32,000 nt of DNA from Pseudoalteromonas tetraodonis (GCF_002310835.1 NZ_CP011041.1:1260001-1292000), one strand, 5' to 3'; numbered from the stretch's first letter, positions 2,887 through 30,596 are shown. Translations and numbers: made by a program. Notes: generated from the letters alone by a model not told the origin.

Positions 2887-3184
2887 ACAGTTACTTTTTA
2901 CCCTAAATGTACCCACAAACATAAAAGATGACGTGGTTGATATATTAATTGGCATAGACTGCATTACCGGCTTTAACTTAAAAAACATTGAAGGCTACAG
3001 TAAAGAGCACAGTGAATTTGACATTGCCGAGCAAGTAGAAGGGCATCGCAGCTTTTATCAGTTTGAGGTGCATATATTATTACCTGAACTTGCCATAGTA
3101 AAAACGGCGTTAAGCCCTGTTTGTAAGTACACGCCGTTAAAATATTGGGTTACGCCTATAGTTGAAAGCGGGCATATTGTTTAG
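2879..3184 (+). CDS. Small conserved protein translationally coupled to the RND pump (possibly DUF3240-like)
   Basis: The ATG at 2879 overlaps the pump stop (ATGGCTGA). About 101 aa, soluble, no TM segments. The family name is from memory of czcA-adjacent small ORFs and is not verified. Confidence 0.6.
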   Translation: MAEQLLFTLNVPTNIKDDVVDILIGIDCITGFNLKNIEGYSKEHSEFDIAEQVEGHRSFYQFEVHILLPELAIVKTALSPVCKYTPLKYWVTPIVESGHIV

Positions 3185-3304
3185 CTTTTTGTATTAGGTT
3201 TATTTTATAAGCTACTTCAATTGGATTGATATTTGAGCTTATTTAATTGATCTTAACAACTTATCAATGTTTAATGAGGCGATATGTCTTAACTGATTTT
3301 TATT

Positions 3305-5578
3305 ATGCACTTTCTCAATAAGTACTTCTTACTTAACGATCATCATACTGCCCATGATGAAGTCGCACACTGGCGGGTGAGTGCACTACGGATAATTTTA
3401 ACGCTCGTTACTTTGCTCTGTTTTTTGGTCGTTTGTTATACATACACCCGCGCAATTGAATTTAACCTAATTTATATTGCAGTTATTACTATTAGTTTTT
3501 TCACTATTGCTTTTAGTCTTTTATTAGCAAGTAAGCGATTTTACACATTTAGTGCAAATGCACTTCTATTAACTATCGTTGCCGGTAGTTTATCAATGAA
3601 TTTATTTTTAACTGACTTAGAGCTTGCCAAGGTGGGTTCTATGTTTATGTATTCATGTCCCATCATTGCTCTTATGCTACTCGGTTACAGAACGGCTTTG
3701 GCCTACGGTATTTTAAACATCATACCTTTTTACATGATTATTAATAATGTTGATTTATCCGGCTATTCAGGAATAGCAAGCCAATTACCAGAAGCTGACT
3801 TATATATTACAGGCCTAATATTTTTATTTTTTAATATTTGTATCCCACTTGCCACTGCGCGAACAATTGTTGCTGCCAAACGTTTAAACAAAACCATGTT
3901 AAATGCTAATAGCTTCCTTAAAGATAAAAACGAGCTTTATCGCACCTTATTTACTGAATCTAATAAAGCTAAAATTATTGTCGACGAAAATTTAGTAATT
4001 ACAGATTTAAATCAACATGCTATTGAAATGTTTGGATTAAAAAACAGCTTGAAAGAAAAGGCTGTCAGAATTGATGGGTTATTCCCTGCACTTAATAGCA
4101 AAGAGTTAAATATAAAAAATCAAATCATAGAATATAAGAGTCGCTACTATAAGAGTAATTATCAGCAAATAGCAATGAGTACAAATTATCGAGTGTATGA
4201 CTTTTATGATTGCACGCAAGAGCAGTTAATTAAACAAAACTTGTCTATGATGGAGCAAGAGAACAAACGTCTAAGGTTTAGAGACTCGCAAACGAAATTG
4301 CCTAATCGAGAGTGGTTTGAAATGCAATGCGATAGGTTAACGTCTAAATACCAAAAAGGGTTTTATATTGTCGTTACACAAAGCGCAAATAGTGAATATT
4401 TAAATTTAAAACTTAACAAAGCTGACTCGCAATCATTGCTAATTACTGCTTATAAGCGCTTAAAAGCAATGTCAGAGGGGCCTTTGCTTTGTGCGTCTAT
4501 AGAAGGTGGCAAACTTGGCTTTATTATTGGTTCAAGCTCAAGTGAACAGCAAAACAAGTTATTAATACAAATTAAAAGCACCTTAGATCAAGCTTATGAT
4601 GTGTTTGGTACTAATTACCAACAATCATTTTTATTTGGTTTTGCTAAGTGTCCTGAGCATGGTGAAAATAGTGCGATTGTTCTTAGTAATGCGTGTGAGG
4701 CGCTCAAACTCGCAGACTATAACTCGCCATTTAATGGTTACAATCAAAAACAATCACAGGCCTTTATGGAAAAGTATGAAATTTCCATGTTACTTGATGA
4801 AGCTTTGCAACAAAATGATCTGTCAGTACATTATCAACCTAAAGTGAATGCAAAAGGTGAATGTATAGGGCTTGAAGCATTAGCTCGTTGGCATAGCTCT
4901 GTACTTGGCAGTGTATCGCCCGCTGTATTTATTCCTATTGCAGAAGAGTATAGAATGATTAGCCGATTAACGGACTTAATTATTCAAAAAGTCTGCGCTC
5001 AAATTGCCCAATGGAGTAAAGTTGGTTTGCCACTTTTACCCGTAGCAATAAACATATCTTTACTCGATTTTAGCCAAGCTGATTTTATGTCAAAGTTGGT
5101 AAAATATTTGGCGGATTTTAATGTAAAACCGAATCAAATAGAATTAGAGCTTACTGAAACGTCACTTGAGGCTAACCAAGTTCACTCTCTAAAACTTATG
5201 CAAACTCTGCAAGATTGGGGGTTCACTATTACAGTGGATGATTTTGGTGTTGGATACTCGAATATTGCACGACTTGCTGATTATCCCATTGATAAACTTA
5301 AATTGGATCGCTCTTTAATAAGTAAGGTTACAAGCTCTACACGCCAAAAAAGCTTAGTTAAAGCCGTGCATGTGATGTGTGATGAACTTAATATTAAGTG
5401 TGTAGCCGAGGGAGTAGAAACCGAAGAACAGGTCCTAATAATGTCCGAAATGGGATGTAAAGAGTTTCAAGGCTATTACTTTTCTAAACCTATGAGTGCT
5501 CAGGTTTATGCTGAATATATAAATCAAAATGGTCTGCTTTTTACGACAAAAAACTTAGCTACGGCGAAAAGTAGCTGA
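3305..5578 (+). CDS. Membrane sensor with PAS, degenerate GGDEF and EAL domains (putative c-di-GMP phosphodiesterase)
   Basis: N-terminal multi-TM region followed by a PAS-like block (LYRTLFTESNKAKIIVDENLVITDLN). The GGDEF position reads EGGKLGF, which is degenerate. Intact EAL motifs are present: EALARW, ELELTE, DDFGVGYSN, KLDRSL, AEGVETEEQ, QGYYFSKP. Confidence 0.9.
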   Translation: MHFLNKYFLLNDHHTAHDEVAHWRVSALRIILTLVTLLCFLVVCYTYTRAIEFNLIYIAVITISFFTIAFSLLLASKRFYTFSANALLLTIVAGSLSMNLFLTDLELAKVGSMFMYSCPIIALMLLGYRTALAYGILNIIPFYMIINNVDLSGYSGIASQLPEADLYITGLIFLFFNICIPLATARTIVAAKRLNKTMLNANSFLKDKNELYRTLFTESNKAKIIVDENLVITDLNQHAIEMFGLKNSLKEKAVRIDGLFPALNSKELNIKNQIIEYKSRYYKSNYQQIAMSTNYRVYDFYDCTQEQLIKQNLSMMEQENKRLRFRDSQTKLPNREWFEMQCDRLTSKYQKGFYIVVTQSANSEYLNLKLNKADSQSLLITAYKRLKAMSEGPLLCASIEGGKLGFIIGSSSSEQQNKLLIQIKSTLDQAYDVFGTNYQQSFLFGFAKCPEHGENSAIVLSNACEALKLADYNSPFNGYNQKQSQAFMEKYEISMLLDEALQQNDLSVHYQPKVNAKGECIGLEALARWHSSVLGSVSPAVFIPIAEEYRMISRLTDLIIQKVCAQIAQWSKVGLPLLPVAINISLLDFSQADFMSKLVKYLADFNVKPNQIELELTETSLEANQVHSLKLMQTLQDWGFTITVDDFGVGYSNIARLADYPIDKLKLDRSLISKVTSSTRQKSLVKAVHVMCDELNIKCVAEGVETEEQVLIMSEMGCKEFQGYYFSKPMSAQVYAEYINQNGLLFTTKNLATAKSS

Positions 5579-5695: not shown

Positions 5696-6862
5696 TTATT
5701 CAAACACTCCTTTTATAACTGCATGGGTGTTTTGCACCATTAATGTGCCGTTAGCCCATACATACTCAGGGGTTAGGGTCTCTTTATCGAGAAGGACAAC
5801 ATCCGCGTCGCTCGCTGCTTTAAGACGGCCTTTATCAACTCCTAAAATATCGGCAGGATTACTGGTTATGCTCATTAAAGCGTGCTCAATAGGGACGTTA
5901 TATTCTTTGACTGCTTGCTGAAACGAGGTTAATAAAGATGCCTCTTTGCCCACCTCAAGCCCTAATAAATTAAAGTCTTTATCAAAAATAGGTAAACTGG
6001 CATGGCCATCTGAGCTCATAGTGAGTTGATTTGGTGCTACGCCTTGTTCTAAGCAGTAGGCAAGGGCATGGGCTGCTGCATATTCACCATGGGCTAAATC
6101 ATAGTCGGTTGTGCTGGTGGTAAAGTCGATAGTACCGCCCTGATCACAAAAGTGAATACCGGCATCAAGAAGTGCTTTATTGCGGTTCATATGCGTAGGA
6201 TAAAACTGTTTAAGCTTAATATCACTTTGCTCAGCCACCTGATGTAAAATAGTTAAATGGCTATCAACAGGGCCAACATGAATACTCACAGTGCCTTTTT
6301 TACCACTGAGCATACCGGCTACTTTGGCCTCTGCTGCCAATTCTGCTAATTGCTGTACCGTAGGTTGGCTACTACGATGATCAGAAATCGCCACTTCGCC
6401 AACACCTATAAACTCCTCTATATACATGATGTCGTCAGTAATTGAGTGGGTGAGTGTTTTCGCGGGTAAATGATACGAACCGGTATGGCAAAATACATTC
6501 AGCCCTTGCTCTTTTAGGCCTTTTGCTTTGGCAACCAAGTTGGTCAGTGTACGTGAGCTTGAATCGGTACCCAGTGCGGCCACCACCGTGGTGGTGCCCG
6601 ATAAGGTTGCATCTGTTAGGTTCATTTCAGGGGTGCGGCTGGCAAATCCAGCCTCGCCACCGCCACCGGTAATATGCACTAAAGAATCAACAAACCCCGG
6701 CGCAACCAGCTTATTTTTACCGGCAATCCGTTTGACGAGTACACTGCTGTCGAGGGTTATATTTTCGTCAATAGCAATGATTTTACCACCGCCAATTAAA
6801 ACATCTTGTGTGCCTAGGAAGGTAGGTGCATAAACGGTTGCACCTTGAATTAAAGTTAACAT
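5696..6862 (-). CDS. iadA: Isoaspartyl (beta-aspartyl) dipeptidase
   Basis: 388 aa, collinear with E. coli IadA as I recall it: PGF.D...H..GGGGEAG, AISDHRSS, PTHMNRN, GGTIDFT, SSDG, C-terminal KGVFE. Amidohydrolase fold. Confidence 0.9.
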   Translation of the reverse strand: MLTLIQGATVYAPTFLGTQDVLIGGGKIIAIDENITLDSSVLVKRIAGKNKLVAPGFVDSLVHITGGGGEAGFASRTPEMNLTDATLSGTTTVVAALGTDSSSRTLTNLVAKAKGLKEQGLNVFCHTGSYHLPAKTLTHSITDDIMYIEEFIGVGEVAISDHRSSQPTVQQLAELAAEAKVAGMLSGKKGTVSIHVGPVDSHLTILHQVAEQSDIKLKQFYPTHMNRNKALLDAGIHFCDQGGTIDFTTSTTDYDLAHGEYAAAHALAYCLEQGVAPNQLTMSSDGHASLPIFDKDFNLLGLEVGKEASLLTSFQQAVKEYNVPIEHALMSITSNPADILGVDKGRLKAASDADVVLLDKETLTPEYVWANGTLMVQNTHAVIKGVFE

Positions 6863-6874
6863 AACAAATTCTTT

Positions 6875-8278
6875 TTATTGATAATTAATAAAGTAAGCAA
6901 GAAATATAAAGCCGCTTGCTAATACAAAAAGTGCTAGGGCAAAGCGCCAAATAAACGCAGCCCATTCTCCCCAATCTAATTTCACTACCCCTAAACAACC
7001 AATTAAACTAGCTGAGGTGGGAATTAAAATGTTGGTTAATCCATCGCCTAATTGAAAGGCCAATACCACAATTTGCCTTGATACATTGAGCAAATCGCCA
7101 AGTGGAGACATCAGTGGCATAGTGATGGCAGCTTGCCCTGAACCCGATGAAACAAAAAAGTTAAATACACTTTGAAACACCAGCATTCCCCAAGCTGCAA
7201 TGTAATCTGGCACACTGGCTATGCTGTTTGCACAGTAATAAAGCAGGGTGTTGAGGGTTGAGGGAGTGGTTAAATCACTACCCCCTAATAGTAATACAAT
7301 GCCTTTAGCCAATGCGACCAATAACGCCGCTGGCAATAATTCTTGTGCACCGTGTTTAAACGCATCCGCGCACTCATTCGCGGTTAGCTTTTTAAACACG
7401 ATGGCAATTATTGCACTGATAAGGCCAATGCAAAAAAACTGTGCAGCAAGCTCAGGAATATAATATTGGCGCGCCATCACCCCCCATACAACCCAAGCTA
7501 TGCCCAATACAAACACTAATAATGTGAGTGCATCGGCTAGGCTAAGTTTAATCGTTGGCTGATCACCCGTTTTTTGGGGTTGTGTTTTTATCCGTTTTGC
7601 ATAGCGTATAGTAAACACAAGGCCTACAAGGGTAAAACAAGCCCATGCTAACATACGAAAGCCCGCACCTGAAAACACTGGGATTTCAGCTATCGATTGC
7701 GCTATAGCAATGCTAAAAGGGTTCATCCATGAGGTGGCAAAGCCTATTTGCGTGGCCACATAAGTTGTAAGTACAGTGACTTTAGCGTCGTAGCCAAGTT
7801 GTTGCATAATAGGGAGCAGCACAATACAAAAGGCAATAGCCTCTTCGCCCATACCAAATACCGCGCCGCCTAACGAAAATAGTAAAAACAGTAAGGGAAT
7901 AAACAGCCATTCAACCCGCTGGGTCTTATTAATAAGTGCCATAATACCGTTATTAATCGCACCGGTTTTCATAATAATGCCAAAGGCACCGCCAGTGATT
8001 AAAATAAACGCCATTACGCCAATCGCTGCACCATATTTATCACCCGACACGAGGCCTTCAAACAATACATTAGCTAAACCAATCTCGCCACCTTGTGCAA
8101 AAACAGGTGGTGATTGTTGGTCGTTAACGGCTTGATATTGTGAAAGCTGCACAGTATGGCTGTCAGGCTCTGCATTAAATACCCCAGGGGTAATAAATAC
8201 CGTGGCCATATAGGCAATCACAGCCACACAAAGCAAAATGATGCTTGCATCGGGCATAGAAAATTGTTTTTGTTTCAT
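6875..8278 (-). CDS. YfcC-family / DcuC-like multi-TM permease, likely co-transcribed with iadA
   Basis: 467 aa, very hydrophobic with more than 10 predicted TM segments. The N-terminus (..MPDASIILLCVAVIAYMATVFI) resembles YfcC-type transporters. Only a 12-nt gap separates it from the iadA start. Confidence 0.7.
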   Translation of the reverse strand: MKQKQFSMPDASIILLCVAVIAYMATVFITPGVFNAEPDSHTVQLSQYQAVNDQQSPPVFAQGGEIGLANVLFEGLVSGDKYGAAIGVMAFILITGGAFGIIMKTGAINNGIMALINKTQRVEWLFIPLLFLLFSLGGAVFGMGEEAIAFCIVLLPIMQQLGYDAKVTVLTTYVATQIGFATSWMNPFSIAIAQSIAEIPVFSGAGFRMLAWACFTLVGLVFTIRYAKRIKTQPQKTGDQPTIKLSLADALTLLVFVLGIAWVVWGVMARQYYIPELAAQFFCIGLISAIIAIVFKKLTANECADAFKHGAQELLPAALLVALAKGIVLLLGGSDLTTPSTLNTLLYYCANSIASVPDYIAAWGMLVFQSVFNFFVSSGSGQAAITMPLMSPLGDLLNVSRQIVVLAFQLGDGLTNILIPTSASLIGCLGVVKLDWGEWAAFIWRFALALFVLASGFIFLAYFINYQ

Positions 8279-8388
8279 AATTTCACTTTAATAAAAGGTC
8301 ATTGTGTTGATGCGTAAATAAACGCTTAAACGTACTTTAGCACTTAATAGGCAGTGTCACTGTAGCCATGACCTGTAATAAAAGGAAT

Positions 8389-8412
8389 GCCGCAAAGCGT
8401 TTGCTTTGCGGC
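8389..8412 (-). terminator. Hairpin downstream of the TonB-dependent receptor gene
   Basis: Perfect 10-bp stem gccgcaaagc / gctttgcggc with loop gttt, 8 nt after the receptor stop. The U-run on the minus strand is partial (attcctttt). Confidence 0.6.
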
Positions 8413-8419
8413 TAAGCGG

Positions 8420-11380
8420 TTAAAAACGGTAGCTAATACTTAATTTGTAATTAGCACCTAGGGCATTATGGTTGATTGAATCAAAGCCACGGCTTGAACC
8501 ATAAAGTGTGGGTGGCTCTTTATCAAAAATATTATTGATGCGCGCGCGCAAAGTCAGCGATTTATTAACATAGTAACCCGCTGATAAATCCCAAACGAGC
8601 CAGTCATCAACCTGATGCTCACCTTTTGAGTCTAATACGCCAAGTGAATCTAGCTCATCAATTTCACGGCTACGCAGGCCTTCTATATCATCCTCGTAGC
8701 TGCTGGTGTAGTTTGCACCTAAGTTAAGGTAGTAACTTTGCGCTTCCCAATCTATTGACATACGCGCAATATTTTCAGGATAACGATATGTACCCACTAG
8801 CTTTTCAATTGAGTCTGAGCCCGGTTTGTTGCGTTCAAATTCAAGGTAGTGAGTACCGTCAAAAGCGAAGGTTAAGTCGCCGCCAGATAACGCAAAGCGA
8901 TGGTCAAATTTAATATCAATACCCGCTAACGTTTGTGTACCAGTGTTTTCAAGCGGAATGACATGGTCGCGGAATAAGGGTAAGTAGTCTTCACCAGGAC
9001 GGGGATTAAAGTTATCTGGGTTTTTATCGCCAGCTTTGTTATCTTCATCAACATAGTTAGCTAAAATCTCAGTTAAATTAGCGCCGTCTTGCTCTATGTT
9101 TAAACCACTGTTGTCGGTGACATCACATAATGCTTCATCGTACGATATGCCTTGCTCGCCCGGTGGTACAATGCCACAGTGACGAAGTGATGCATCGGTT
9201 ATGGCGCGATCTAACACAGCGGTCATGTTGGTATCGATTACTTCTTCATGATCAAACTGCCAATAATCAATGGTTAAATTAGTATTAGCCGAGGGACTCC
9301 ATGCAAAACCAACACTAATAGCCTCAGATTCTTCTGCATTTAGATTTGGGTTACCTAACTCTAACGAATTAACACTCACTTGGGTGCCATCACCCATACA
9401 GTATAAATCGGCTACAGCTTGGTTTGCACCACAGTCAAAAGTAGATTGTGTGGTTCTTAATTTAACGCCAGCCTGTGTTAATGATGGTGCTCTAAACGAG
9501 GTTGACCATGAACCACGAACAACTAACGAATCAGTTGGGCGATAGCTCAAACCTATTTTAGGATTAAAGGTGCCACCAAAATCATCGTAATGATCGTATC
9601 GACCTGCTGCTTGCAGCTCTATTTGCTCTGTGAGTGAAATACTTAATTCAGCAAACGCTGCATATTGAGTGCGATCGGCTTCTGATAAACTAGAGCCAAA
9701 GCCAAATACATCAACAAGATAGTCTTTATCTGCTTGAGCTTGTGAATCAAGCGAAGGAATGTCGCTTAGCTCTTCACGGCGTGCTTCTACCCCAAATGAG
9801 GCATAGGCAGGCAGGTCGTTAAAGGTAAATAGCTCACCATTAAAATTAGCATCCCAGCCGTAAACTGTACTTTCTCCGCTGCGTGTTGGGCGAGCTTGCG
9901 CTGTTGCCAAAACGGCATCATTAGCGGCGTCGCCTTGAAGGAAAGGGTTGTAAAAAGGCAGCAGTTCTCCCGATGCACAGTTTAAGTCAGTACCGTCATA
10001 ACTTGCCAGCGTACCGTCTGAACATAGCTCGCCGGTGATAGCGCCATGGAACTGGTAACGATTATAAACTCCTGCAATCGCTTCTTGCTCTGAACGTGAG
10101 CGAGAAAAGGTTACCCCAGATTCCCAACCCCAATCACCAATTTCACCACTTAGACTGCTTACCAAGCGAAAGTTTTTCGTTTCTACTTCCACCGTTCTTG
10201 GGGCATTAAAGCGCGCATCAAATGCAAAACCATACACTTCTCGACCACTTTGGGTATCAAATGGGTCAATGTAGAGTTGATCTAATAAATCATTACTACC
10301 ATCGGCATTATCGTAAATAAATAAGGCGTCTTCTAAAACATACGGGCCGTCGTCGTCATTAATTTGGTTAATAGGTGAGGGCGATGAGTACGCTTTTGCC
10401 TTGGTCTGACTGTAAAAAAAGTCAGTATGCCATTGCATACCACCAAGCTCACTATTAAACATAAAGCCGGTTGAAATGCTTTCAAATGGCGTTTCTAGGT
10501 AATCATCTTGATTAGGGTAGTAAGCACAAATTTGTTCATCTAATTCAGTAGTAACTAATTCGGTTTTGCAGTTTGGTGATGGAAGTTCGTTACCATCTCG
10601 GCTGCTGAAATAATAAATATTAGGTGAGTTCTCCAGCTTAGGTAAATAGGAGTAACCATTCACTAAAGAGGGAGAGGCCGTGTAATTACGATCGGTCGCT
10701 TTAAAAGCGTTACGGTCATATATATCAGCAAATACCGTTAAATTACTTTCGCCTATTTTTGTACCATAAACTAAGTTTAATTGTTTTTTACTTTCGTCAT
10801 GCTGATCAAAGCTATCGGCAAACGAAGTATTGATTTCAGCGCCTTCAAAATCATCTTTTAAAATATAGTTAATAACACCTGCCACAGCATCGGCACCATA
10901 AACGGCTGATGCGCCTGTGGCTAAAATATCAATGCGCTCAATGGCGGCTAGTGGAATAGAGTTTACATCTACAAAGTTTTCAGTACCTGCAGCAAATGAA
11001 CTAGGTGCAACTCTTCGCCCATTTATTAATGTCAGCGTTGCTGATGGCCCCATGCCTCTTAAGCTCGCAGCTGATTGACCCGCTGGTGTTGAGGTAGACG
11101 TACCGCCACTTTCAGAGGTTGAAAATGTGCCGCTTCCGCCCTTAAAAACAGATAAATCTTTGAGTAATTCATGAATGGTATTAGCGCCAGAGCGTTTGAT
11201 TGCATCTTGGTCTAGTACGGTTAATGGGATAGTTCCTTCAAGATCAACGCCTTTTAAGCGAGATCCTGTTACTTCTACTCGTTCAATGTTGGTGTCGGTG
11301 TTGGTTTCTTGTGCATGTGCAAAAGTGATCGGGTTCAGTAATGCGCTTACTGTGGCCGCAATTGTTAGTTGACGAAACAT
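8420..11380 (-). CDS. TonB-dependent outer-membrane receptor (large, 986 aa)
   Basis: Signal peptide ending AHA/QE, plug region (ERVEVTGSRLKG...IPLTVLDQDAIKRSGANTIHELLKDL), long beta-barrel, and a C-terminal aromatic residue (..SISYRF). Confidence 0.92.
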   Translation of the reverse strand: MFRQLTIAATVSALLNPITFAHAQETNTDTNIERVEVTGSRLKGVDLEGTIPLTVLDQDAIKRSGANTIHELLKDLSVFKGGSGTFSTSESGGTSTSTPAGQSAASLRGMGPSATLTLINGRRVAPSSFAAGTENFVDVNSIPLAAIERIDILATGASAVYGADAVAGVINYILKDDFEGAEINTSFADSFDQHDESKKQLNLVYGTKIGESNLTVFADIYDRNAFKATDRNYTASPSLVNGYSYLPKLENSPNIYYFSSRDGNELPSPNCKTELVTTELDEQICAYYPNQDDYLETPFESISTGFMFNSELGGMQWHTDFFYSQTKAKAYSSPSPINQINDDDGPYVLEDALFIYDNADGSNDLLDQLYIDPFDTQSGREVYGFAFDARFNAPRTVEVETKNFRLVSSLSGEIGDWGWESGVTFSRSRSEQEAIAGVYNRYQFHGAITGELCSDGTLASYDGTDLNCASGELLPFYNPFLQGDAANDAVLATAQARPTRSGESTVYGWDANFNGELFTFNDLPAYASFGVEARREELSDIPSLDSQAQADKDYLVDVFGFGSSLSEADRTQYAAFAELSISLTEQIELQAAGRYDHYDDFGGTFNPKIGLSYRPTDSLVVRGSWSTSFRAPSLTQAGVKLRTTQSTFDCGANQAVADLYCMGDGTQVSVNSLELGNPNLNAEESEAISVGFAWSPSANTNLTIDYWQFDHEEVIDTNMTAVLDRAITDASLRHCGIVPPGEQGISYDEALCDVTDNSGLNIEQDGANLTEILANYVDEDNKAGDKNPDNFNPRPGEDYLPLFRDHVIPLENTGTQTLAGIDIKFDHRFALSGGDLTFAFDGTHYLEFERNKPGSDSIEKLVGTYRYPENIARMSIDWEAQSYYLNLGANYTSSYEDDIEGLRSREIDELDSLGVLDSKGEHQVDDWLVWDLSAGYYVNKSLTLRARINNIFDKEPPTLYGSSRGFDSINHNALGANYKLSISYRF

Positions 11381-11729
11381 CTTAAATACCTTTTGTCTTT
11401 TAAGCGCACAAAAACATACAAACAGATCTGTGGCTTTTAATTGTTATATTTTTAGACAGGGCAGTGGTGAAATGACACGCTAAGCCCCTCACTGTGAAAA
11501 AGTGAGGTGGTGGGCTACTCGTCAAACCACTCCGAAAGATAGTGTGGTGAGTAGAAATATGTTGTAAGCAAACGTGCTTTTTTAAACATAATTCTCATTC
11601 CAAAAGGTTTTTGACAAAGCCAGCAAAGGGGTGCTAGCTTACTCGCGTTTTAAAGTTCCTTTTTTTTATAGCAAGTGAGAGACGCTCTCGCAAGTTATTT
11701 CTTATAATTTTTTACATGAGTATAACATA

Positions 11730-13430
11730 ATGGAACGAATATATTTACCAAACAAACGGTTAGCTAAATCGCGCATAATAACGGCTCTTTTTTCGTTTTT
11801 TATTGCTTTTTCGCTGCAGTTAAGCGCAAAAGAATCTGAACAAACGTTAGTATTAGTCGGCGGTGCACTCACAACGTGTGCTAGTTTAAGCCCTAAAAAT
11901 TGTGAAAAAAACACACAAATTCCGGGTAAAATACATAATGTATTTACGCTCTCCCACGCTAAAATTAGTCAAATAAAGCAACAATGGCCAAGTAAAAATA
12001 CGCAAGCTAAAAACAAAACTATTAAAAATTTAGCAACAATGCAGGCTAAATCATCACCCACATTGTCAAAAAAAGAGCTGTTATGGTTATGGCGCGATAT
12101 TGATAGTAAACAGCTCAATAGTTTAACGGATCAAGAATACAATTTTGTAATAGATATGCTTGAAGTAGCGCAGCTGCAGGGCGACAATACGCGACTAAAA
12201 GAGCAGGTCAATACCGCGCTTAATAGCGAATCCGCCGCGACAGATATTTTGCAATTTATATCGGGCAGTTTAAAAGTAAAAAGTACTAACCCGAGCATAC
12301 TAGCCATTACCGCCTCAAGCAGAGACCCTTATGAATCTGCTGATTTTTACGAAGGATTACTTCGTTTTCCCAATATAAATTCACAATGGCTTGCATTAAC
12401 TCCTGCGCTTGCTAAAGCAATAACTACCAATAAATGTGATGATTTAAACACGCTTAGGCACTCTGAAATGGGGCTATATCAACGTGAACATATTTACCCT
12501 GATCGCACTCAAGCAGAATATTTGCTGTGTAAAAACGGCACAGGCGCTTTAGTGCAGCTAATCAAAAATAGTACCGGTGTTATGTTTAATGGCGGCGATC
12601 AAAGCTTAACGCGCAAGGTATTGTTTGATGAAAATAATCAGCCATATCCATGGACAAAAGCGTTACAGTCTCGCCCTGTTGTTGTAGGTACAAGTGCAGG
12701 CACCGCAGTGCAAAGTGGCGGGCAAGCGCACGGTGGTAATGTGGTTATGATCACTAATGGCACAAGTTTATCGGCATTGAAAGAAGGCGCGCAAGCCATT
12801 GATGCGCCCAGTGAGCGCTCAAACAGCGATAGTTTAACTTACAACCGCTTTGGGGGTTTAGGCACATTTAGTTACGGTGTACTCGATACACACTTTAGCG
12901 AGCGAAACCGTACATTAAGACTAGGCACTTTGCTCGACAGCTTTGGTGCAAATCAAGCTCAACCCGCATTTGGTTTTGGTGTAGACGAAACCACCGCCTT
13001 AGTGGTTATTAAATCTGAATCAGGGAATTTAATGACCGTAATTGGTAAAAATGGTGTGGTGATGGTTAAATCAACAGGGCAGGCTCAGGCTGAAACTAAA
13101 ACCTACAGTTACTCGTACTGGCCTGCTGGCAGTGTGATTGATATTAAAAATAATGATTTTACCTTAAGTCAGCGCAGTATTAGCCAAGCATTGCCAGCAA
13201 TTAAAATACCGCCTTTGCCGGTTCAGCGTTTCGGCAATATTTTAACGGATGCCAAATTGCGCTCTTTAACGCAAGCCATGTGCTTGAGCCAAGAACAAAC
13301 AGCTGTTGGTCAGCAAGATGCGTTTATTATTAGTCTATCAACTAAGCCTGAGTCGGCTTATCACCGTATTAGTGCTGAGCAGTATGGCTGTGCGGTGAGT
13401 AATTTAGAAATTTCAGTGAGTACCTTTTAA
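11730..13430 (+). CDS. Secreted peptidase S51, cyanophycinase-like, with a large inserted domain
   Basis: Signal peptide (..FSLQLSA/KE). S51/cyanophycinase motifs are LVLVGGA near the N-terminus, GGDQ (MFNGGDQSL), the nucleophile motif GTSAG (VVVGTSAGTAVQSG) and DTHFSERNRTLRLGTLL (compare the D.HF..R.R..RL block of CphB). 566 aa is about twice the CphB length as I recall it (about 270 aa). Confidence 0.75.
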   Translation: MERIYLPNKRLAKSRIITALFSFFIAFSLQLSAKESEQTLVLVGGALTTCASLSPKNCEKNTQIPGKIHNVFTLSHAKISQIKQQWPSKNTQAKNKTIKNLATMQAKSSPTLSKKELLWLWRDIDSKQLNSLTDQEYNFVIDMLEVAQLQGDNTRLKEQVNTALNSESAATDILQFISGSLKVKSTNPSILAITASSRDPYESADFYEGLLRFPNINSQWLALTPALAKAITTNKCDDLNTLRHSEMGLYQREHIYPDRTQAEYLLCKNGTGALVQLIKNSTGVMFNGGDQSLTRKVLFDENNQPYPWTKALQSRPVVVGTSAGTAVQSGGQAHGGNVVMITNGTSLSALKEGAQAIDAPSERSNSDSLTYNRFGGLGTFSYGVLDTHFSERNRTLRLGTLLDSFGANQAQPAFGFGVDETTALVVIKSESGNLMTVIGKNGVVMVKSTGQAQAETKTYSYSYWPAGSVIDIKNNDFTLSQRSISQALPAIKIPPLPVQRFGNILTDAKLRSLTQAMCLSQEQTAVGQQDAFIISLSTKPESAYHRISAEQYGCAVSNLEISVSTF

Positions 13431-13520
13431 TTTAATTAAACACGCTGCTTAGTTGATTTTAGATTAAGCGGCCATACTATACTTAAAGCGTGTTATTAAA
13501 TCACAACAAAAGGAAGGTTC

Positions 13521-14072
13521 ATGAGTAAAGTAGCGGTTATTTATTTTTCTGGATATGGCCATACCAAAAAAGTGGCGGAATTTGTGGCTGATGGAGCAAA
13601 CGCTCAGCTTATTGCAATCGATGAAAATGGTGATATTAAAGACACCGATTGGGATGCATTAAACAATGCAGACGCCATTATTTTTGGTGCACCTACCTAT
13701 ATGGGCTCATACCCTTGGCAGTTTAAAAAGTTTGTCGATGCCACCTCTAAAGTGTGGTTTACCATGGGTTGGAAAGATAAAGTGTTTGGCGGTTTTACTA
13801 ATAGCGGCAGCCTAAATGGCGACAAACAAGTCACCCTAATTAGTATGCAAACGTTAGCTTCACAGCATGGTGGACTTTGGGTAAGCCTAGGGTTACCACC
13901 CGCCAATAAATTGGAATCAACCCGTCAAGACATCAATAACTTAGGCGGTTCGGTTGGCGTATTAGTACAATCACCTACTGATGCTGACGAAACGGCTATT
14001 CCATCAGGCGATTTAGAAACGGCTCGTTTATACGGTGAGCGCGTTGCTGAAATAGCAAAACGATTAAAGTAA
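13521..14072 (+). CDS. Flavodoxin-like NAD(P)H:quinone oxidoreductase (WrbA-like)
   Basis: 183 aa with a good SD (aaggaagg). N-terminal FMN-binding pattern VAVIYFSGYGHTKKVAE and GAPTYMG. Confidence 0.8.
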   Translation: MSKVAVIYFSGYGHTKKVAEFVADGANAQLIAIDENGDIKDTDWDALNNADAIIFGAPTYMGSYPWQFKKFVDATSKVWFTMGWKDKVFGGFTNSGSLNGDKQVTLISMQTLASQHGGLWVSLGLPPANKLESTRQDINNLGGSVGVLVQSPTDADETAIPSGDLETARLYGERVAEIAKRLK

Positions 14073-14103
14073 AAATGACCTAAATTAAGTTTATTTAATC
14101 CGT

Positions 14104-14132
14104 AAAGCCACACTTAATTAGTGTGGCTTTTT
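14104..14132. terminator. Bidirectional rho-independent terminator
   Basis: Stem aaagccacac / gtgtggcttt followed by a T-run on the plus strand, abutting the stop of the minus-strand ORF. Confidence 0.75.
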
Positions 14133-14724
14133 AGTTTGATAGCCCCAGTTCTTGCTTATGCTCAAGTTGATATAAGCTTGAATATTCACGTTTATGCACT
14201 TCAAATAAATACGCTCTCAGTTGCTCTTTACCATGGTGAATATGCTTTATTTTAGCTGCTATGCCACACTCACTGTGCCTAACGGGTTCTATGTCTAATG
14301 ATATAGCCGCTTCATTGGGTAAAATAAATTGCATATTTTGTAACTCATCAAGTTCACTGTTTATTGATGTGGGTTTTAAAAATATTCCTGTGCTTGAGAT
14401 AGATTCAATGCAAAAACCTTGGCTTTGAATATTTAATTCACTTAATCGCCAGCTACGTTGAGTGCCTTTAGTATCAATCACTTCTGGGGCTGCTAACACA
14501 GTACTGAAATGGCCTAATTCATCAGTTTTAAATTGAAGTGGAAACCACAGTTGGTAATGAGCTACTTCTGCTAATAGGGTTAATTTAGCCTGACCAAGTA
14601 AATGCGCAATACCATCTGGTATTGATGTTTGTACTGTTAGTTTTGTTTCATTAATTAATGCTGTACTTTGACTAGGTTCAAACAACCCAGATAAAAAGTT
14701 AATTTCTTCGTCAGACAAATCCAT
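14131..14724 (-). CDS. Hypothetical protein, possibly a non-canonical PilZ-domain protein
   Basis: 197 aa with a strong SD (aaggaaaa, 7 nt upstream). QRSWRL, followed about 20 residues later by SISSTGIFL, resembles degenerate forms of the PilZ motifs RxxxR and D/NxSxxG. Confidence 0.55.
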   Translation of the reverse strand: MDLSDEEINFLSGLFEPSQSTALINETKLTVQTSIPDGIAHLLGQAKLTLLAEVAHYQLWFPLQFKTDELGHFSTVLAAPEVIDTKGTQRSWRLSELNIQSQGFCIESISSTGIFLKPTSINSELDELQNMQFILPNEAAISLDIEPVRHSECGIAAKIKHIHHGKEQLRAYLFEVHKREYSSLYQLEHKQELGLSN

Positions 14725-15112
14725 GTATTTTCCTTAATACGTAAATCGTAGATTCTATTCCTTACAAGGTTACTGCCCAATGAATGACCAGTTTATTATT
14801 TTGTAAGATTTGGCCTGTACGGCTTTATTTTTATACAATTTATAATCTCAGCTTTCCTGGCTGGATTTATAAGCAATTGATTTAAATTAATTATATTTTC
14901 TTTTAAGCTTGTTTAGTTAAATCACTGAATAAATCTTTTGGTATTCTAACCCCAATAACAGCAATAAGTTAAGTAATAAAGTGTACAAAATTAAAGCGCT
15001 CTGCAACGTTTTTATACCAACTATGCGTAAATGAGACTTAGGTCTAGCTTACGAAGCATAAGGAAATACTTAGAATAGCGCCCAAATAATAATGGGGTTT
15101 AAGGGGTTCCAA

Positions 15113-22702: not shown

Positions 22703-22779
22703 ATGGTCGGTATGGAGAGATTCGAACTCTCGACCCCTGCCACCCCATGACAGTGCGCTACCAAGCTGCGCCACATACC
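22703..22779 (-). tRNA. tRNA-Pro (anticodon GGG)
   Basis: Reverse complement: CGGTATG TG GCGC AGCTTGGTA GCGC A CTGTC ATGGGGT GGCAG GGGTC GAGAG TTCGAAT CTCTC CATACCG A CCA. The cloverleaf is perfect at 77 nt with an encoded CCA, and is close to E. coli proL as I recall it. Confidence 0.95.
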
Positions 22780-22896
22780 GACTTCGACTGCAATAGTACG
22801 TGTATTTTTAAAAAAATCAATAAGCATTTGTTTGTTTGGATGTTTATTGCGCAAGCGTTTAATATTAAGCGCTTGCGCCAGAAGTTTTACACGGCT

Positions 22897-28009: not shown

Positions 28010-29017
28010 ATGATCGAAGCTGATCGCTTAATAGATGCTGCTGAAAAAACCAACGAAGACACCATAGACCGTGCTATTAGGCCTAAGTTATTGGCCGACT
28101 ATCGTGGTCAGCCGCATGTTAAGCAACAAATGGAAATATTTATTGAAGCTGCGCGCAGTCGTAGCGAAGCGTTGGATCACTTATTGATATTTGGCCCACC
28201 AGGCTTAGGTAAAACCACGCTTGCTAATATTGTGGCGAACGAATTAAACGTAAATATTAAAACCACGTCTGGACCTGTGCTTGAAAAAGCGGGCGATTTA
28301 GCCGCATTGCTCACTAACCTTGAAGAGGGTGATGTACTGTTTATTGATGAAATTCACCGTTTGAGCCCGCAAGTTGAAGAAATACTCTACCCGGCAATGG
28401 AAGATTACCAGCTCGATATTATGATAGGTGAAGGCCCTGCAGCGCGTTCTATTAAGCTTGATTTACCCGCATTTACACTCATTGGTGCAACTACCCGTGC
28501 GGGATCATTAACTTCTCCACTGCGTGACCGTTTTGGTATTGTTCAGCGCTTAGAGTTTTACTCTGTGGAAGACTTATCGCATATTGTGGGGCGCTCAGCG
28601 CATTATCTTAGTTTAGAAATGTGTGACGATGGCGCGGCCGAAATAGCCAAACGTTCGCGCGGTACGCCACGTATTGCAAATCGTTTATTGCGCCGAGTGC
28701 GCGATTACACCCAAGTAAAGTCAGACGGTACGGTTAATGCTGAGGTGGCCCAACAAGCCCTCGACATGATTGACGTTGATAAAAGCGGTTTTGATTACAT
28801 GGATCGTAAATATTTACTCGCCATCATCGAAAAGTTTATGGGTGGCCCTGTTGGCCTTGACAACTTAGCCGCGGCAATAGGCGAAGAGAAAGAAACCATA
28901 GAAGATGTGATTGAACCCTTTTTAATTCAACAAGGATTTATTCAGCGTACGCCGCGAGGGCGAATTGTCTCTGATAATGCGTACCACCATTTTGGCTTGT
29001 TACCTAAAAAAGATTAA
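28010..29017 (+). CDS. ruvB: Holliday junction branch migration ATPase RuvB
   Basis: Walker [10 protein letters not shown], Walker [10 protein letters not shown], sensor region TTRAG..PLRDRFG. Confidence 0.95.
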
Positions 29018-29043
29018 ATAACCAGAATAACTAGACTCTTTCT

Positions 29044-29077
29044 AAAGCCACTGTCATTTTAACGACAGTGGCTTTTT
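29044..29077 (+). terminator. Rho-independent terminator after ruvB
   Basis: aaagccactgtc ... gacagtggc followed by T5. Confidence 0.85.
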
Positions 29078-29212
29078 AGTATGAGCAAAAGCTAAATTTA
29101 GACGTATTTTACTTTGCCAATAATTCACTGAGCGTTAAGACATATCAGGCTATTGTGCGCCTGCTGTAACGTTACTGAGGCCGAGTGTAGCTGATTTGAC
29201 AAATTGCGGGCA

Positions 29213-29239
29213 AAAAAAAGCCCGCAAATAATGCGGGCA
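29213..29239 (-). terminator. Rho-independent terminator on the minus strand with no annotated gene upstream
   Basis: The minus strand reads gcccgca-ttatt-tgcgggc followed by T8. Confidence 0.65.
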
Positions 29240-29388
29240 AACAACAAGTTTAAGGAAGTAATCTAGGGAACTACGTTTTACTTATTGAGGTCATACCCCA
29301 AGAAGTAAAAAAGTAATACGAAATAAATCATATTACGAAGAACTGGATTCAATGAAATAGCTTTCATTTAATGCGCTAGCTCGGTATG
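29213..29388 (-). ncRNA. Candidate ~175-nt transcript: sRNA and/or mRNA for a 29-codon hydrophobic peptide (29279..29368)
   Basis: It is bounded by a near-consensus sigma70 promoter (below) and the T8 terminator. The internal ORF is MKAISLNPVLRNMIYFVLLFYFLGYDLNK, with no clear SD. Confidence 0.35.
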
Positions 29389-29394
29389 GGAGAA

Positions 29395-29423
29395 TAATAC
29401 CGAAGCGGCAGAATTTGTTCAAA
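29395..29423 (-). promoter_or_regulatory. Candidate sigma70 promoter (TTGAAC-17-TATTAT) on the minus strand
   Basis: The -35 is at 29423..29418, the spacer is 17 nt, and the -10 is at 29400..29395. The predicted TSS is near 29388. Confidence 0.4.
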
Positions 29424-29891
29424 CTAGAAAATTTATATTTTCAGATTAAAAAAACTAATAGCAGGGGTTTTCTGTTTTTACTTAATGTTGCATGTTAATT
29501 AACCATTAATTCTATAAGTTAATGAAATGCTTTGTTTATGTATATTAACATATAAACGTTCGGTATTAGTTTTACTATTACGTTAAGGTAAGTGTGTAGT
29601 GTTTATGAGTGCTTATGCATTAATTTTGAATAAACAGCGTATTTTTGTGACTCTTTAGTGAAATTAAGCGGGCTTACAGATAGCTTTATTGTTATTTATT
29701 TATACAGTAAAACAAGAGTTAAGTAGTAAAACTATTTTTTTAACGTTTTTTGTTGGCTATTCACAGCAATATCGTTGTCAGCAGTAAATACACTAGATAC
29801 ACTAGCTGAACTTTAATGGTGGCTAATGTGTTACAAAGTTACCTTACTCAAATAAATCAATTTGATGTTTTTAATTATTTAGGAGTTTAAC

Positions 29892-30596
29892 GTGGGATCA
29901 GGGCTTAATTTTTTAGATCTAATTCTAGAAGCCAGTTTGCTTGTGCAATTAGTAATGCTAGCGTTGGTTGCTATGTCGGTTATGTCGTGGGCTATTATTT
30001 TTCAACGTAAAAAAGCCATCTCTGACGCCTTAGCAAATGCCAAAAAATTTGAGCAACGTTTTTGGTCTGGTGTTGACTTAAGTAAGCTATATAACGAAAT
30101 TTCATCACGCGGTGGTCAATCAACGGGTATTGAAGCGTTATTCACCTCAGGTTTTAAAGAGTTTGCACGCCACAAAAAAAATACCTTTCAAAGTGCAGGC
30201 ATTGTTATGGAAGGCACGCACCGTTCAATGCGGGTTGCGCTTTCTCGTGAAATAGAAAAACTAGAATCAAGCTTATCGTTTTTAGCAACCGTTGGGTCAA
30301 TTAGCCCTTACATAGGTTTGTTTGGTACAGTATGGGGTATTATGAATGCCTTTATTGCCTTAGGTGAAGTAAAACAAGCAACCTTACAAATGGTTGCACC
30401 AGGTATAGCAGAAGCTTTGATTGCAACAGCGATGGGTTTATTTGCGGCTATTCCTGCCGTTATTGCCTATAACCGATTTGCTAATAAAGTTGAAAAGTTA
30501 GAATCTCATTACATTAACTTTATGGAAGAATTTGCCAATATTTTACACCGTCAAGCAGCTACCCAAATAGAGGCTCAAGCGAATGTACCAGCGTAA
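29892..30596 (+). CDS. tolQ: Tol-Pal system protein TolQ
   Basis: GTG start with AGGAG 6 nt upstream. Strong collinearity with E. coli TolQ ([55 protein letters not shown]). Confidence 0.95.

Follow-up and report, generated by a model that had tools for sequence, protein, structure and literature searches.

How could a marine heterotroph capture a nitrogen-rich polymer made by other organisms, and how could it adjust the necessary genes to the supply? The question is raised by a locus in a stretch of 32,000 nucleotides from Pseudoalteromonas tetraodonis (GCF_002310835.1, NZ_CP011041.1:1260001-1292000), hereafter called the window, whose positions are counted from its first letter. Between 5696 and 13430, the window carries a cassette of genes coding for an S51 peptidase, a TonB-dependent receptor (TBDR), a YfcC-family permease and the isoaspartyl dipeptidase IadA. 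A preliminary description, made from the DNA alone, proposed that these four genes serve to scavenge cyanophycin, i.e. multi-L-arginyl-poly-L-aspartate, a nitrogen-rich storage polymer freed when cyanobacteria or other producers lyse. With moderate confidence, we read the locus as a cassette of five parts that scavenges exogenous cyanophycin or its beta-Asp-Arg/Lys dipeptides, the fifth part being a short leader open reading frame (ORF) that would control the uptake genes in cis.

The S51 enzyme

The S51 gene (11730..13430, plus strand) encodes a long-form, cyanophycinase-like peptidase of 566 amino acids that is predicted to be secreted. A Sec-type signal peptide can be read at residues 1-33 (11730..11828, plus strand), with a predicted cleavage between LSA and K, and an N-terminal hydrophobic leader is found in 33 of the 33 aligned members of the family. 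The preliminary description had listed the signal peptide along with three S51 motifs, all of which were recovered: GGDQ at residues 288-291, GTSAG at 320-324, and D.HF..R.R..RL, which reads DTHFSERNRTLRL in this protein, at 386-398. In two family alignments, the residues of the catalytic triad, S322, H388 and E420 (GXSXG, DxHF and (D/S)E motifs), are either invariant or kept in no less than 90% of the sequences. The pocket corresponds to CphB Gln101, Asp172, Gln173, Arg178, Arg180 and Arg183: Q291, D386, R392, R394 and R397 are invariant or nearly so in the family, and T387 stands at the position of Gln173. The residues critical for cyanophycin binding have been listed for the cyanophycinases CphB and CphE, and Thr223 replaces Gln173 in CphEal (PMC3235067). 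Moreover, the protein contains six cysteines (three pairs), all of them invariant in the family, a pattern which would fit an exported, disulfide-bonded enzyme.

An insertion following the N-terminal GG motif, also pointed out in the preliminary description, proves to be real and to span about 140 residues, as judged from both an AlphaFold model (pLDDT 90.2, pTM 0.88) and the limits of the alignment to the cyanophycinase model TIGR02069, which is confined to residues 183-450. This mainly helical insertion (residues 47-189; 11868..12296, plus strand) lies between core strands 1 and 2 and is absent from CphB. More precisely, the model places helices at residues 76-84, 91-107, 114-131, 134-144 and 168-184, between strands 38-44 and 189-193, and the helical insertion is kept across the long-form family. 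Further features of the model are two loops (225-270 and 330-370) and a C-terminal beta domain. At E<1e-30, the family comprises 155 clusters (50% identity), nearly all made of proteins of 550-620 amino acids with an N-terminal signal peptide.

As regards its closest relatives, a profile built from 33 family members and compared with the PDB finds cyanophycinases with E-values of about 1e-22 (6.6e-22 among them), whereas PepE (dipeptidase E) reaches 5e-5 only. In the same line, Foldseek searches with the model return the cyanophycinase structures 7uqw and 3en0 on top (E about 4e-11, TM 0.70) and PepE lower (1e-5, TM 0.56), the predicted fold thereby being nearer to the solved cyanophycinases than to dipeptidase E. 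TIGR02069 is matched by 54 of 54 family members, with a best E-value of 2e-32, and a PepE model by only two of the 54. Identities as a dipeptidase E or as an S51 protein of the McC-resistance type were rejected, as profile, fold, signal peptide and context all disagree with them.

The uptake genes and the conservation of their order

All four ORFs lie at the positions and on the strands given in the preliminary description, the S51 gene being divergent from the TBDR gene. The latter (8420..11380, minus strand) encodes an outer-membrane protein of 986 amino acids with a signal peptide and with Plug (PF07715) and barrel (PF00593) domains, whose N-terminus, MFRQLTIAATVSALLNPITFAHA, is followed by a TonB-box-like IERVEVTGS; it reaches the cut-off of no substrate-specific NCBIfam model. 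The next gene codes for a YfcC-family inner-membrane permease of the DcuC superfamily (6875..8278, minus strand), which scores 609.5 bits with NF008611, against a cut-off of 500, with residues 8-467 covered, hence in full length, and which matches Pfam DcuC at 1e-117. After 12 nt, the yfcC stop is followed by the start of iadA (5696..6862, minus strand), the last gene of the uptake operon, coding for an isoaspartyl (beta-aspartyl) dipeptidase that lies above the equivalog threshold of TIGR01975 (433 bits, cut-off 331) and matches solved IadA structures at E-values of 1e-82 to 1e-89, with 7cdh, 8dqn and 1onw at 1e-83 to 1e-89. Between the TBDR and yfcC genes, a terminator-like hairpin is predicted at 8389..8412 (minus strand), 8 nt past the TBDR stop codon, with a 10-bp stem containing 7 GC pairs and a T-rich tail; given this strong hairpin, an expression of yfcC-iadA by read-through or from an own promoter is suggested.

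The order of the cassette, with iadA, yfcC and the TBDR gene on one strand and the S51 gene divergent from them, is shared without change by Pseudoalteromonas, Arsukibacterium, Saliniradius, Rheinheimera, Pseudomarimonas and contigs from metagenomes, the flanks being unrelated. Besides two close Pseudoalteromonas relatives, P. mariniglutinosa carries the cassette between different flanks and with an S51 protein that is 57% identical, while at S51 identities of 25-32% it is found in Arsukibacterium ikkense, Saliniradius amylolyticus, Rheinheimera maricola, Pseudomarimonas salicorniae (Lysobacterales) and several uncultured contigs. Across genera, the TBDR is 55-61% identical, YfcC in the syntenic loci 50-59%, and the S51 protein 30-32%, so that the proteins of transport and hydrolysis are much better conserved than the secreted enzyme. 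The single-protein scan of genome contigs yielded four Pseudoalteromonas loci only, and the wider synteny was obtained by looking up the encoding contigs and by scanning metagenomes. Two findings could have spoken against the preliminary description, namely an S51 protein grouping with dipeptidase E and a lack of co-occurrence of the four genes in related genomes; it withstood both, since the S51 protein sides with the cyanophycinases and the cassette order recurs across distant Gammaproteobacteria. The label of a locus resembling a polysaccharide utilization locus (PUL) holds in logic only: every ORF of the cassette is assigned to another function than that of a SusD-like protein, and the pair of SusC and adjoining SusD that defines a Sus-like PUL is lacking.

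Two Pseudoalteromonas loci deserve mention. In Pseudoalteromonas sp. MMG007, an S51 homologue (54% identity; positions 8352-13713 of locus L004) stands alone, without receptor, yfcC, iadA or small ORF, having a Zn-phospholipase C gene upstream and a phage-type integrase and an AbiEii-like ATPase downstream. In Pseudoalteromonas sp. RW-H-Ap-1, the TBDR aligns as two overlapping tblastn pieces (positions 6725-9648 of locus L002), which suggests a frameshift or pseudogene, or else an assembly error.

A small ORF ahead of the uptake genes

Within the span covered by the preliminary description, but not named there, lies a conserved small ORF of 24 codons, MFKKARLLTTYFYSPHYLSEWFDE, ending with a TAG stop (11515..11589, minus strand). 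It is short, has the orientation of the operon and stands immediately upstream of it, at 134 nt from the TBDR gene in the window, and its strongest conservation is found beside the stop codon, as is the case for known leader peptides of the termination-arrest type. The window contains one nhmmer hit for it (E=1.4e-19), and an in-frame ATG further upstream, at 11598, is specific to the window's clade. The conserved block of the divergent intergenic region to which it belongs is present in every TBDR-bearing locus, including one GC-rich locus.

When the core pattern was scanned through metagenomes, at least 119 loci were obtained, of which 116 non-redundant matches were analysed; the loci are phylogenetically related, so that the counts overstate their independence. 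Among the 116, 108 have a TAG or TAA stop, the pattern having demanded a stop starting with TA and thereby excluded TGA, and are preceded by an ATG at a distance of exactly 24 or 23 codons, while the other eight are chance matches inside long ORFs. At position -6, a codon left free by the pattern, Ser is found in 108 of 109 cases, with TCN codons where the DNA is AT-rich and AGC where it is GC-rich; Leu is drawn from six codons, and at position -9 every peptide has either an aromatic residue or His. In codons 2-15, likewise unconstrained by the pattern, the entropy by codon position amounts to 0.97/0.80/1.38, the third position being the most variable. The fixed distance between ATG and stop, the Ser kept through both TCN and AGC codons and the variation at third positions all argue that the small ORF is translated and that the peptide, and not just the nucleotides, is under selection.

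The C-terminus [FYH]YLSEW[FW][DN]E-stop is invariant over four N-terminal classes, namely M[LYF]K[KN]A…, M.KPR.HIRH..RT…, MMRKARGFF… and a 33-residue form. In the 24-codon class, conservation also extends along the whole peptide (K3, A5, L8, Y11, Y13). The peptide has neither signal peptide nor membrane segment, and searches of Pfam, NCBIfam and Rfam gave no match to the small ORF. TAG is the stop in 79% of the AT-rich loci, versus 18% TAG/(TAG+TAA) in the long ORFs of the same loci. No description of this leader peptide was found in the literature covered, from which subscription journals were left out.

The genes that follow the small ORF were tallied for those 115 instances in which the downstream sequence is long enough, and 112 of them precede, on the same strand, one of a narrow set: a TBDR (75 instances), yfcC (15), an ATP-binding cassette (ABC) binding protein of the Lys/Arg/Orn type, in general with iadA behind it (12), another kind of secreted S51 enzyme that bears a PPC domain (9), or iadA itself (1). 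The binding protein scores 278 bits with TIGR01096, against a cut-off of 256. In GC-rich metagenome contigs, two copies of the small ORF may lie about 1.75 kb apart (L047, 4325 and 6076; L063, 3052 and 4810; L082, 73 and 1837), in the order small ORF, S51 (PPC), small ORF, TBDR, yfcC. In L012, L049, L081, L120 and L123, as well as L084, the small ORF precedes a Lys/Arg/Orn-type binding protein, mostly followed by iadA, with no TBDR, YfcC or S51 gene nearby. The stand-alone S51 locus, from which the transport genes are missing, has no small ORF. The association of the small ORF is exclusively with operons of this set. As read from its downstream genes, whose common denominator would be a beta-aspartyl dipeptide with a basic partner, the small ORF marks a putative regulon for the uptake and hydrolysis of such dipeptides. 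This lends independent support to the cyanophycin reading of the cassette.

Proposed route and control

In the route that we favour, the long-form S51 enzyme would be exported via Sec, presumably beyond the periplasm, and would free beta-aspartyl dipeptides with its CphE-like Ser322-His388-Glu420 triad and Arg392/394/397 pocket. The products would then pass the outer membrane through the dedicated TBDR, be taken over the inner membrane by the YfcC-family permease, and finally be cleaved by IadA into Asp and Arg or Lys. The scavenging system drawn in the preliminary description agrees with the residues and fold of the enzyme and with the synteny, whereas its substrate, its secretion step and the cargo assigned to the TBDR keep the status of proposals.

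The TBDR-yfcC-iadA operon would be governed in cis by the 24-codon leader ORF. Its stop is followed by a C-rich, G-poor leader of 134 nt reaching to the TBDR start (11381..11514, minus strand), and a hairpin predicted at about 11524-11473 pairs the region of the stop codon. Such a hairpin overlaps the stop of the small ORF in 107 of 110 loci, and over the 100 nt past the stop C exceeds G in 96-97% of loci, the skew of the flanking sequence being about zero; in our reading, such a composition is typical of Rho-utilisation (rut) sites. The last nine residues and the stop, invariant over otherwise different peptides, follow the pattern of a termination arrest. By analogy with TnaC and SpeFL, the nascent peptide together with an effector may hold the ribosome at the TAG stop, and the stalled ribosome would cover the hairpin and the rut-like leader, so that a premature, probably Rho-dependent, termination would be prevented. 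The effector would most plausibly be the imported dipeptide, i.e. beta-Asp-Arg/Lys, or arginine, a guess made because the effector of TnaC and SpeFL is the substrate of their operon. The leader may thus be a TnaC/SpeFL-like peptide possibly sensing beta-Asp-Arg or arginine. Going further, and with less than even confidence, one could see in YLSEW[FW][DN]E-stop a new class of ribosome-arrest peptides, which would sense arginine or beta-Asp-Arg with the exit tunnel, block the release by release factor 1 (RF1) at UAG, shield the rut site and thereby switch on the regulon.

Other modes of control were considered for the same region. The idea that the small ORF is followed by a canonical intrinsic terminator was rejected, only about 40 of 85 strong hairpins having a U-rich tail, and so was a translational attenuation in which the next gene's ribosome-binding site would become accessible, masking of the ribosome footprint at the stop giving an unpaired probability of 0.48 versus 0.47 over 69 loci. 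The small ORFs contain no codon runs for a regulating amino acid of the kind that characterizes trpL/hisL-type attenuators.

Points against this reading and alternatives to it

Several observations weigh against the reading given above. The window S51 protein scores 72.7 bits with TIGR02069, under the curated equivalog cut-off of 126.6, as do all 54 family members, and Pfam Peptidase_S51 yields no significant match to it (E=0.012); the profile check suggested in the preliminary description thereby gave a match to the cyanophycinase model that stays below its threshold. Foldseek also returns, among the closest structures, 7uqv, entitled "Pseudobacteroides cellulosolvens pseudo-CphB", and because such a close match was deposited under this name, fold alone may not prove activity, the title hinting at the existence of CphB-like proteins devoid of cyanophycinase activity. 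A query with the PPC-containing S51 enzyme found only unnamed or generically named proteins, and neither secreted S51 form could be linked, as far as sequence searches go, to the characterised CphE. As to transport, yfcC is missing from the cassette of one contig, and some lineages without TBDR retain S51, yfcC and iadA, the small ORF there directly preceding yfcC, so the receptor is dispensable in some lineages. In addition, a dipeptide of 289 Da should cross the outer membrane via porins, which leaves the need for a TBDR unexplained. As to control, only about half of the loci show a U-rich tail behind the hairpin, masking of the ribosome footprint leaves the pairing of the next gene's ribosome-binding site unchanged, and neither a clear Shine-Dalgarno sequence nor a promoter could be assigned to the small ORF. 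The exclusion of TGA stops and the relatedness of the loci, mentioned with the counts, belong here as well.

In its native state, cyanophycin forms an insoluble polymer with a mass of tens of kDa. According to a variant of the topology, which keeps some plausibility but which we hold to be rather unlikely, the S51 enzyme would be periplasmic, the TBDR would import soluble cyanophycin oligomers and the dipeptides would be made in the periplasm only, in a "selfish" mode of uptake. Such a variant accords with the description of cyanophycinase as an exo-enzyme (PMC10206079). Only a Sec signal peptide is visible in the S51 protein, nothing else in it indicating a passage of the outer membrane, and, from what is generally known of TBDRs, an oligomer would suit the receptor better than the 289-Da dipeptide. 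Against it, the polymer is insoluble, yet the cassette encodes no second, surface endo-enzyme. Furthermore, CphE, which bears the same kind of signal peptide, occurs in culture supernatants (PMC3235067), and the lineages without TBDR still have S51, yfcC and iadA.

A second alternative, to which we likewise give a limited chance, accepts that the small ORF is translated and replaces the ligand-sensing arrest by a starvation attenuator, by constitutive coupling or Rho-shielding through an upstream ORF, or by a free small protein. The unassigned Shine-Dalgarno sequence and promoter leave room for it, as does the conservation of the 24-codon class along the entire peptide, beyond the C-terminus, stalling itself being proposed by analogy. 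On the other hand, runs of a regulatory codon are not seen, and starvation control fits poorly because the operon is catabolic; the peptide also carries neither a signal peptide nor a segment fit for a membrane. Across the four classes, nothing but the last nine residues and the stop is invariant, a pattern known from TnaC/SpeFL (PMC8429421), and both the TAG bias and the rut-like leader agree with an arrest at the stop.

A third alternative concerns the substrate. The window stems from, or nearly equals, Pseudoalteromonas sp. SM9913, its S51 protein being 100% identical to the NCBI entry, and the habitat of this strain is deep-sea sediment, where cyanobacterial cyanophycin may be scarce. The cassette could instead salvage generic isoaspartyl or beta-aspartyl peptides from aged proteins, or another polymer with an aspartate backbone, the substrate of the S51 enzyme then not being cyanophycin; we consider this unlikely. 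The sub-threshold TIGR02069 score and the "pseudo-CphB" structure speak for it, as does the promiscuity of IadA towards beta-Asp-X (PMC10206079, PMC5517026). However, every residue reported to bind cyanophycin is kept, the three arginines included, and PepE-type models barely match the family. Besides, the small ORF stands before binding proteins of the Lys/Arg/Orn type and YfcC has been modelled as a carrier of basic amino acids, which together argue for a basic partner residue, as in beta-Asp-Arg/Lys.

Finally, it is highly improbable that the intergenic block acts as a non-coding element, be it a riboswitch, a small RNA or a protein operator, with a coincidental frame: its flanking arms look stem-like with compensatory changes and a T-run stands next to them on the opposite strand, but RNAalifold yields nearly no consensus structure on either strand, Rfam has no match, the "T-run" is the complement of Lys-Lys-Ala codons, Ser survives the switch between TCN and AGC, Leu uses six codons and the distance from ATG to stop is fixed. 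The structured RNA once read on the plus strand (stem, hairpin and T-run) was dropped on the negative RNAalifold and Rfam results, the block being the minus-strand small ORF.

Relation to known systems

Among the closest counterparts of the S51 protein are two characterised extracellular cyanophycinases, CphE from Pseudomonas anguilliseptica BI and CphEal from P. alcaligenes DIP1 (PMC3235067). CphE shares with the window protein a Sec signal peptide, the triad of GXSXG Ser, His and Glu, the pocket made of Gln, Asp and three Arg, the Thr in place of Gln173, and a C-terminus longer than that of CphB. In contrast, CphE has about 419 amino acids, against 566 for the window protein, and apparently lacks the insertion of about 140 residues, as judged by residue spacing only (Gln136 in CphE versus Gln291 here); its activity is proven, whereas that of the window protein is predicted. 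The intracellular CphB (3en0, 7uqw) is the best match in structure and profile, with the same catalytic and pocket residues at about 18% identity, to which the window protein adds the signal peptide, the insertion 47-189, the loops 225-270 and 330-370, the C-terminal beta domain and the three cysteine pairs.

With regard to gene clusters, a "cyanophycin utilization locus" has been reported in L21-Spi-D4, a strain of the Bacteroidetes (Ben Hania et al. 2017, cited in PMC10206079). According to this second-hand account of its gene content, a cyanophycinase, an isoaspartyl dipeptidase and a transporter are clustered there for the use of external cyanophycin, as in the window, whose cassette differs in being gammaproteobacterial and in having a long-form S51 enzyme, a TBDR, YfcC and a leader peptide. 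Clusters of cyanophycinase with IadA/IaaA and without cphA1 were counted in PMC10206079, whose supplements, in the parts available to us, contain neither Pseudoalteromonas nor Rheinheimera. As this census relied on BLAST with three queries, it probably misses the divergent long-form S51 family. In the alphaproteobacterium Citromicrobium sp. JLT1363, a TonB-dependent transporter lies beside a cyanophycinase and cyanophycin was proposed as its substrate (Tang et al. 2012, PMC3400609); this is a single locus and a prediction only, for which no permease, IadA or leader was described. The novelty that the preliminary description attached to a TBDR for cyanophycin was therefore overstated, such a role having been proposed in 2012 (PMC3400609) and "cyanophycin utilization loci" being cited in PMC10206079. 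A "secreted putative cyanophycinase" of P. tunicata is also already in the literature.

In Pseudomonas aeruginosa, the arginine ABC importer AotJQMP acts with the cytoplasmic hydrolase AotO (CphZ), and growth on beta-Asp-Arg was demonstrated (PMC9974463). The coupling of an arginine-type importer to a dipeptide hydrolase recalls the window, as do the loci elsewhere in which the small ORF precedes a Lys/Arg/Orn binding protein and iadA. The Pseudomonas system differs from the window cassette by its ABC transporter and M14-type CphZ in place of YfcC and IadA, by its regulation through ArgR and by the lack of any reported leader peptide.

As for the leader, TnaC, with 24 residues, responds to L-Trp and has a rut site next to its stop, SpeFL responds to L-ornithine with inhibition of RF1 (PMC8429421), and for the fungal arginine attenuator peptide (AAP) it is arginine that elicits stalling at the stop codon (PMC7969011). 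All three share with the window leader a short ORF lying directly upstream of a permease-containing operon and a conservation that peaks beside the stop. The stalling of TnaC and SpeFL is known, while for the window leader stalling, effector and Rho dependence are proposed by analogy. Sequence similarity to these peptides could not be verified; YLS[DE] may resemble the fungal peptide. In Bordetella pertussis, the upstream ORF CruR precedes and controls the TonB-dependent transporter BfrG (cited in PMC12992588 and PMC10987492). According to these citing sources, CruR has a RAPP motif at its C-terminus and is copper-responsive, whereas the window leader ends with YLSEWFDE, and upstream ORFs of the CruR class before TBDRs are mostly predicted to bear a signal sequence, which the window leader lacks.

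Hence, CphE, the clusters of cyanophycinase, IadA and transporter, the TBDR beside a cyanophycinase and the P. tunicata protein were known already, all but CphE as genome-based predictions. What is new here is the family of long-form S51 proteins that share the insertion, the module of TBDR, YfcC and IadA that is fixed in Gammaproteobacteria and, above all, the leader peptide.

Other features of the window

The genes flanking the cassette belong to other systems, among them a resistance-nodulation-division (RND) pump, a GGDEF/EAL protein, a WrbA-like flavodoxin and a CoA transferase, and their synteny is kept in close relatives only. The G+C content falls to 0.32-0.35 in 3001-5000, 14001-15000 and 29001-30000, compared to about 0.42 elsewhere, the first of these dips spanning the GGDEF/EAL gene. 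An ORF of 197 amino acids (14131-14724, minus strand) has no Pfam or NCBIfam match and is kept in the closest relatives only; beside it, at 14104-14130, lies a bidirectional terminator-like hairpin. A tRNA gene (22707-22780, minus strand) is the sole Rfam match of the window at the gathering threshold.

Significance

To our knowledge, the capture of cyanophycin by marine heterotrophs is known mostly from a few cases in Pseudomonas and Bacteroidetes. The cassette would represent a widespread gammaproteobacterial route with a candidate dedicated outer-membrane receptor, and would suggest what the YfcC permeases, a poorly understood family, may do in the cell. In addition, it draws attention to a divergent family of cyanophycinases, probably under-counted by BLAST-based censuses.

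The leader peptide matters more. We know of very few metabolite-sensing nascent peptides in bacteria, and this candidate raises the interest of the locus because it is directly testable, being short, present in more than 100 loci and endowed with an invariant nine-residue motif. It may also serve as a practical genomic marker for beta-Asp-Arg operons. If the arrest reading were true, the peptide would act as a regulon-wide switch for the receptor, the permease or ABC importer, the dipeptidase and the secreted cyanophycinase in Alteromonadales, Lysobacterales and other Proteobacteria, and would thereby be a bacterial functional counterpart of the fungal arginine attenuator peptide.

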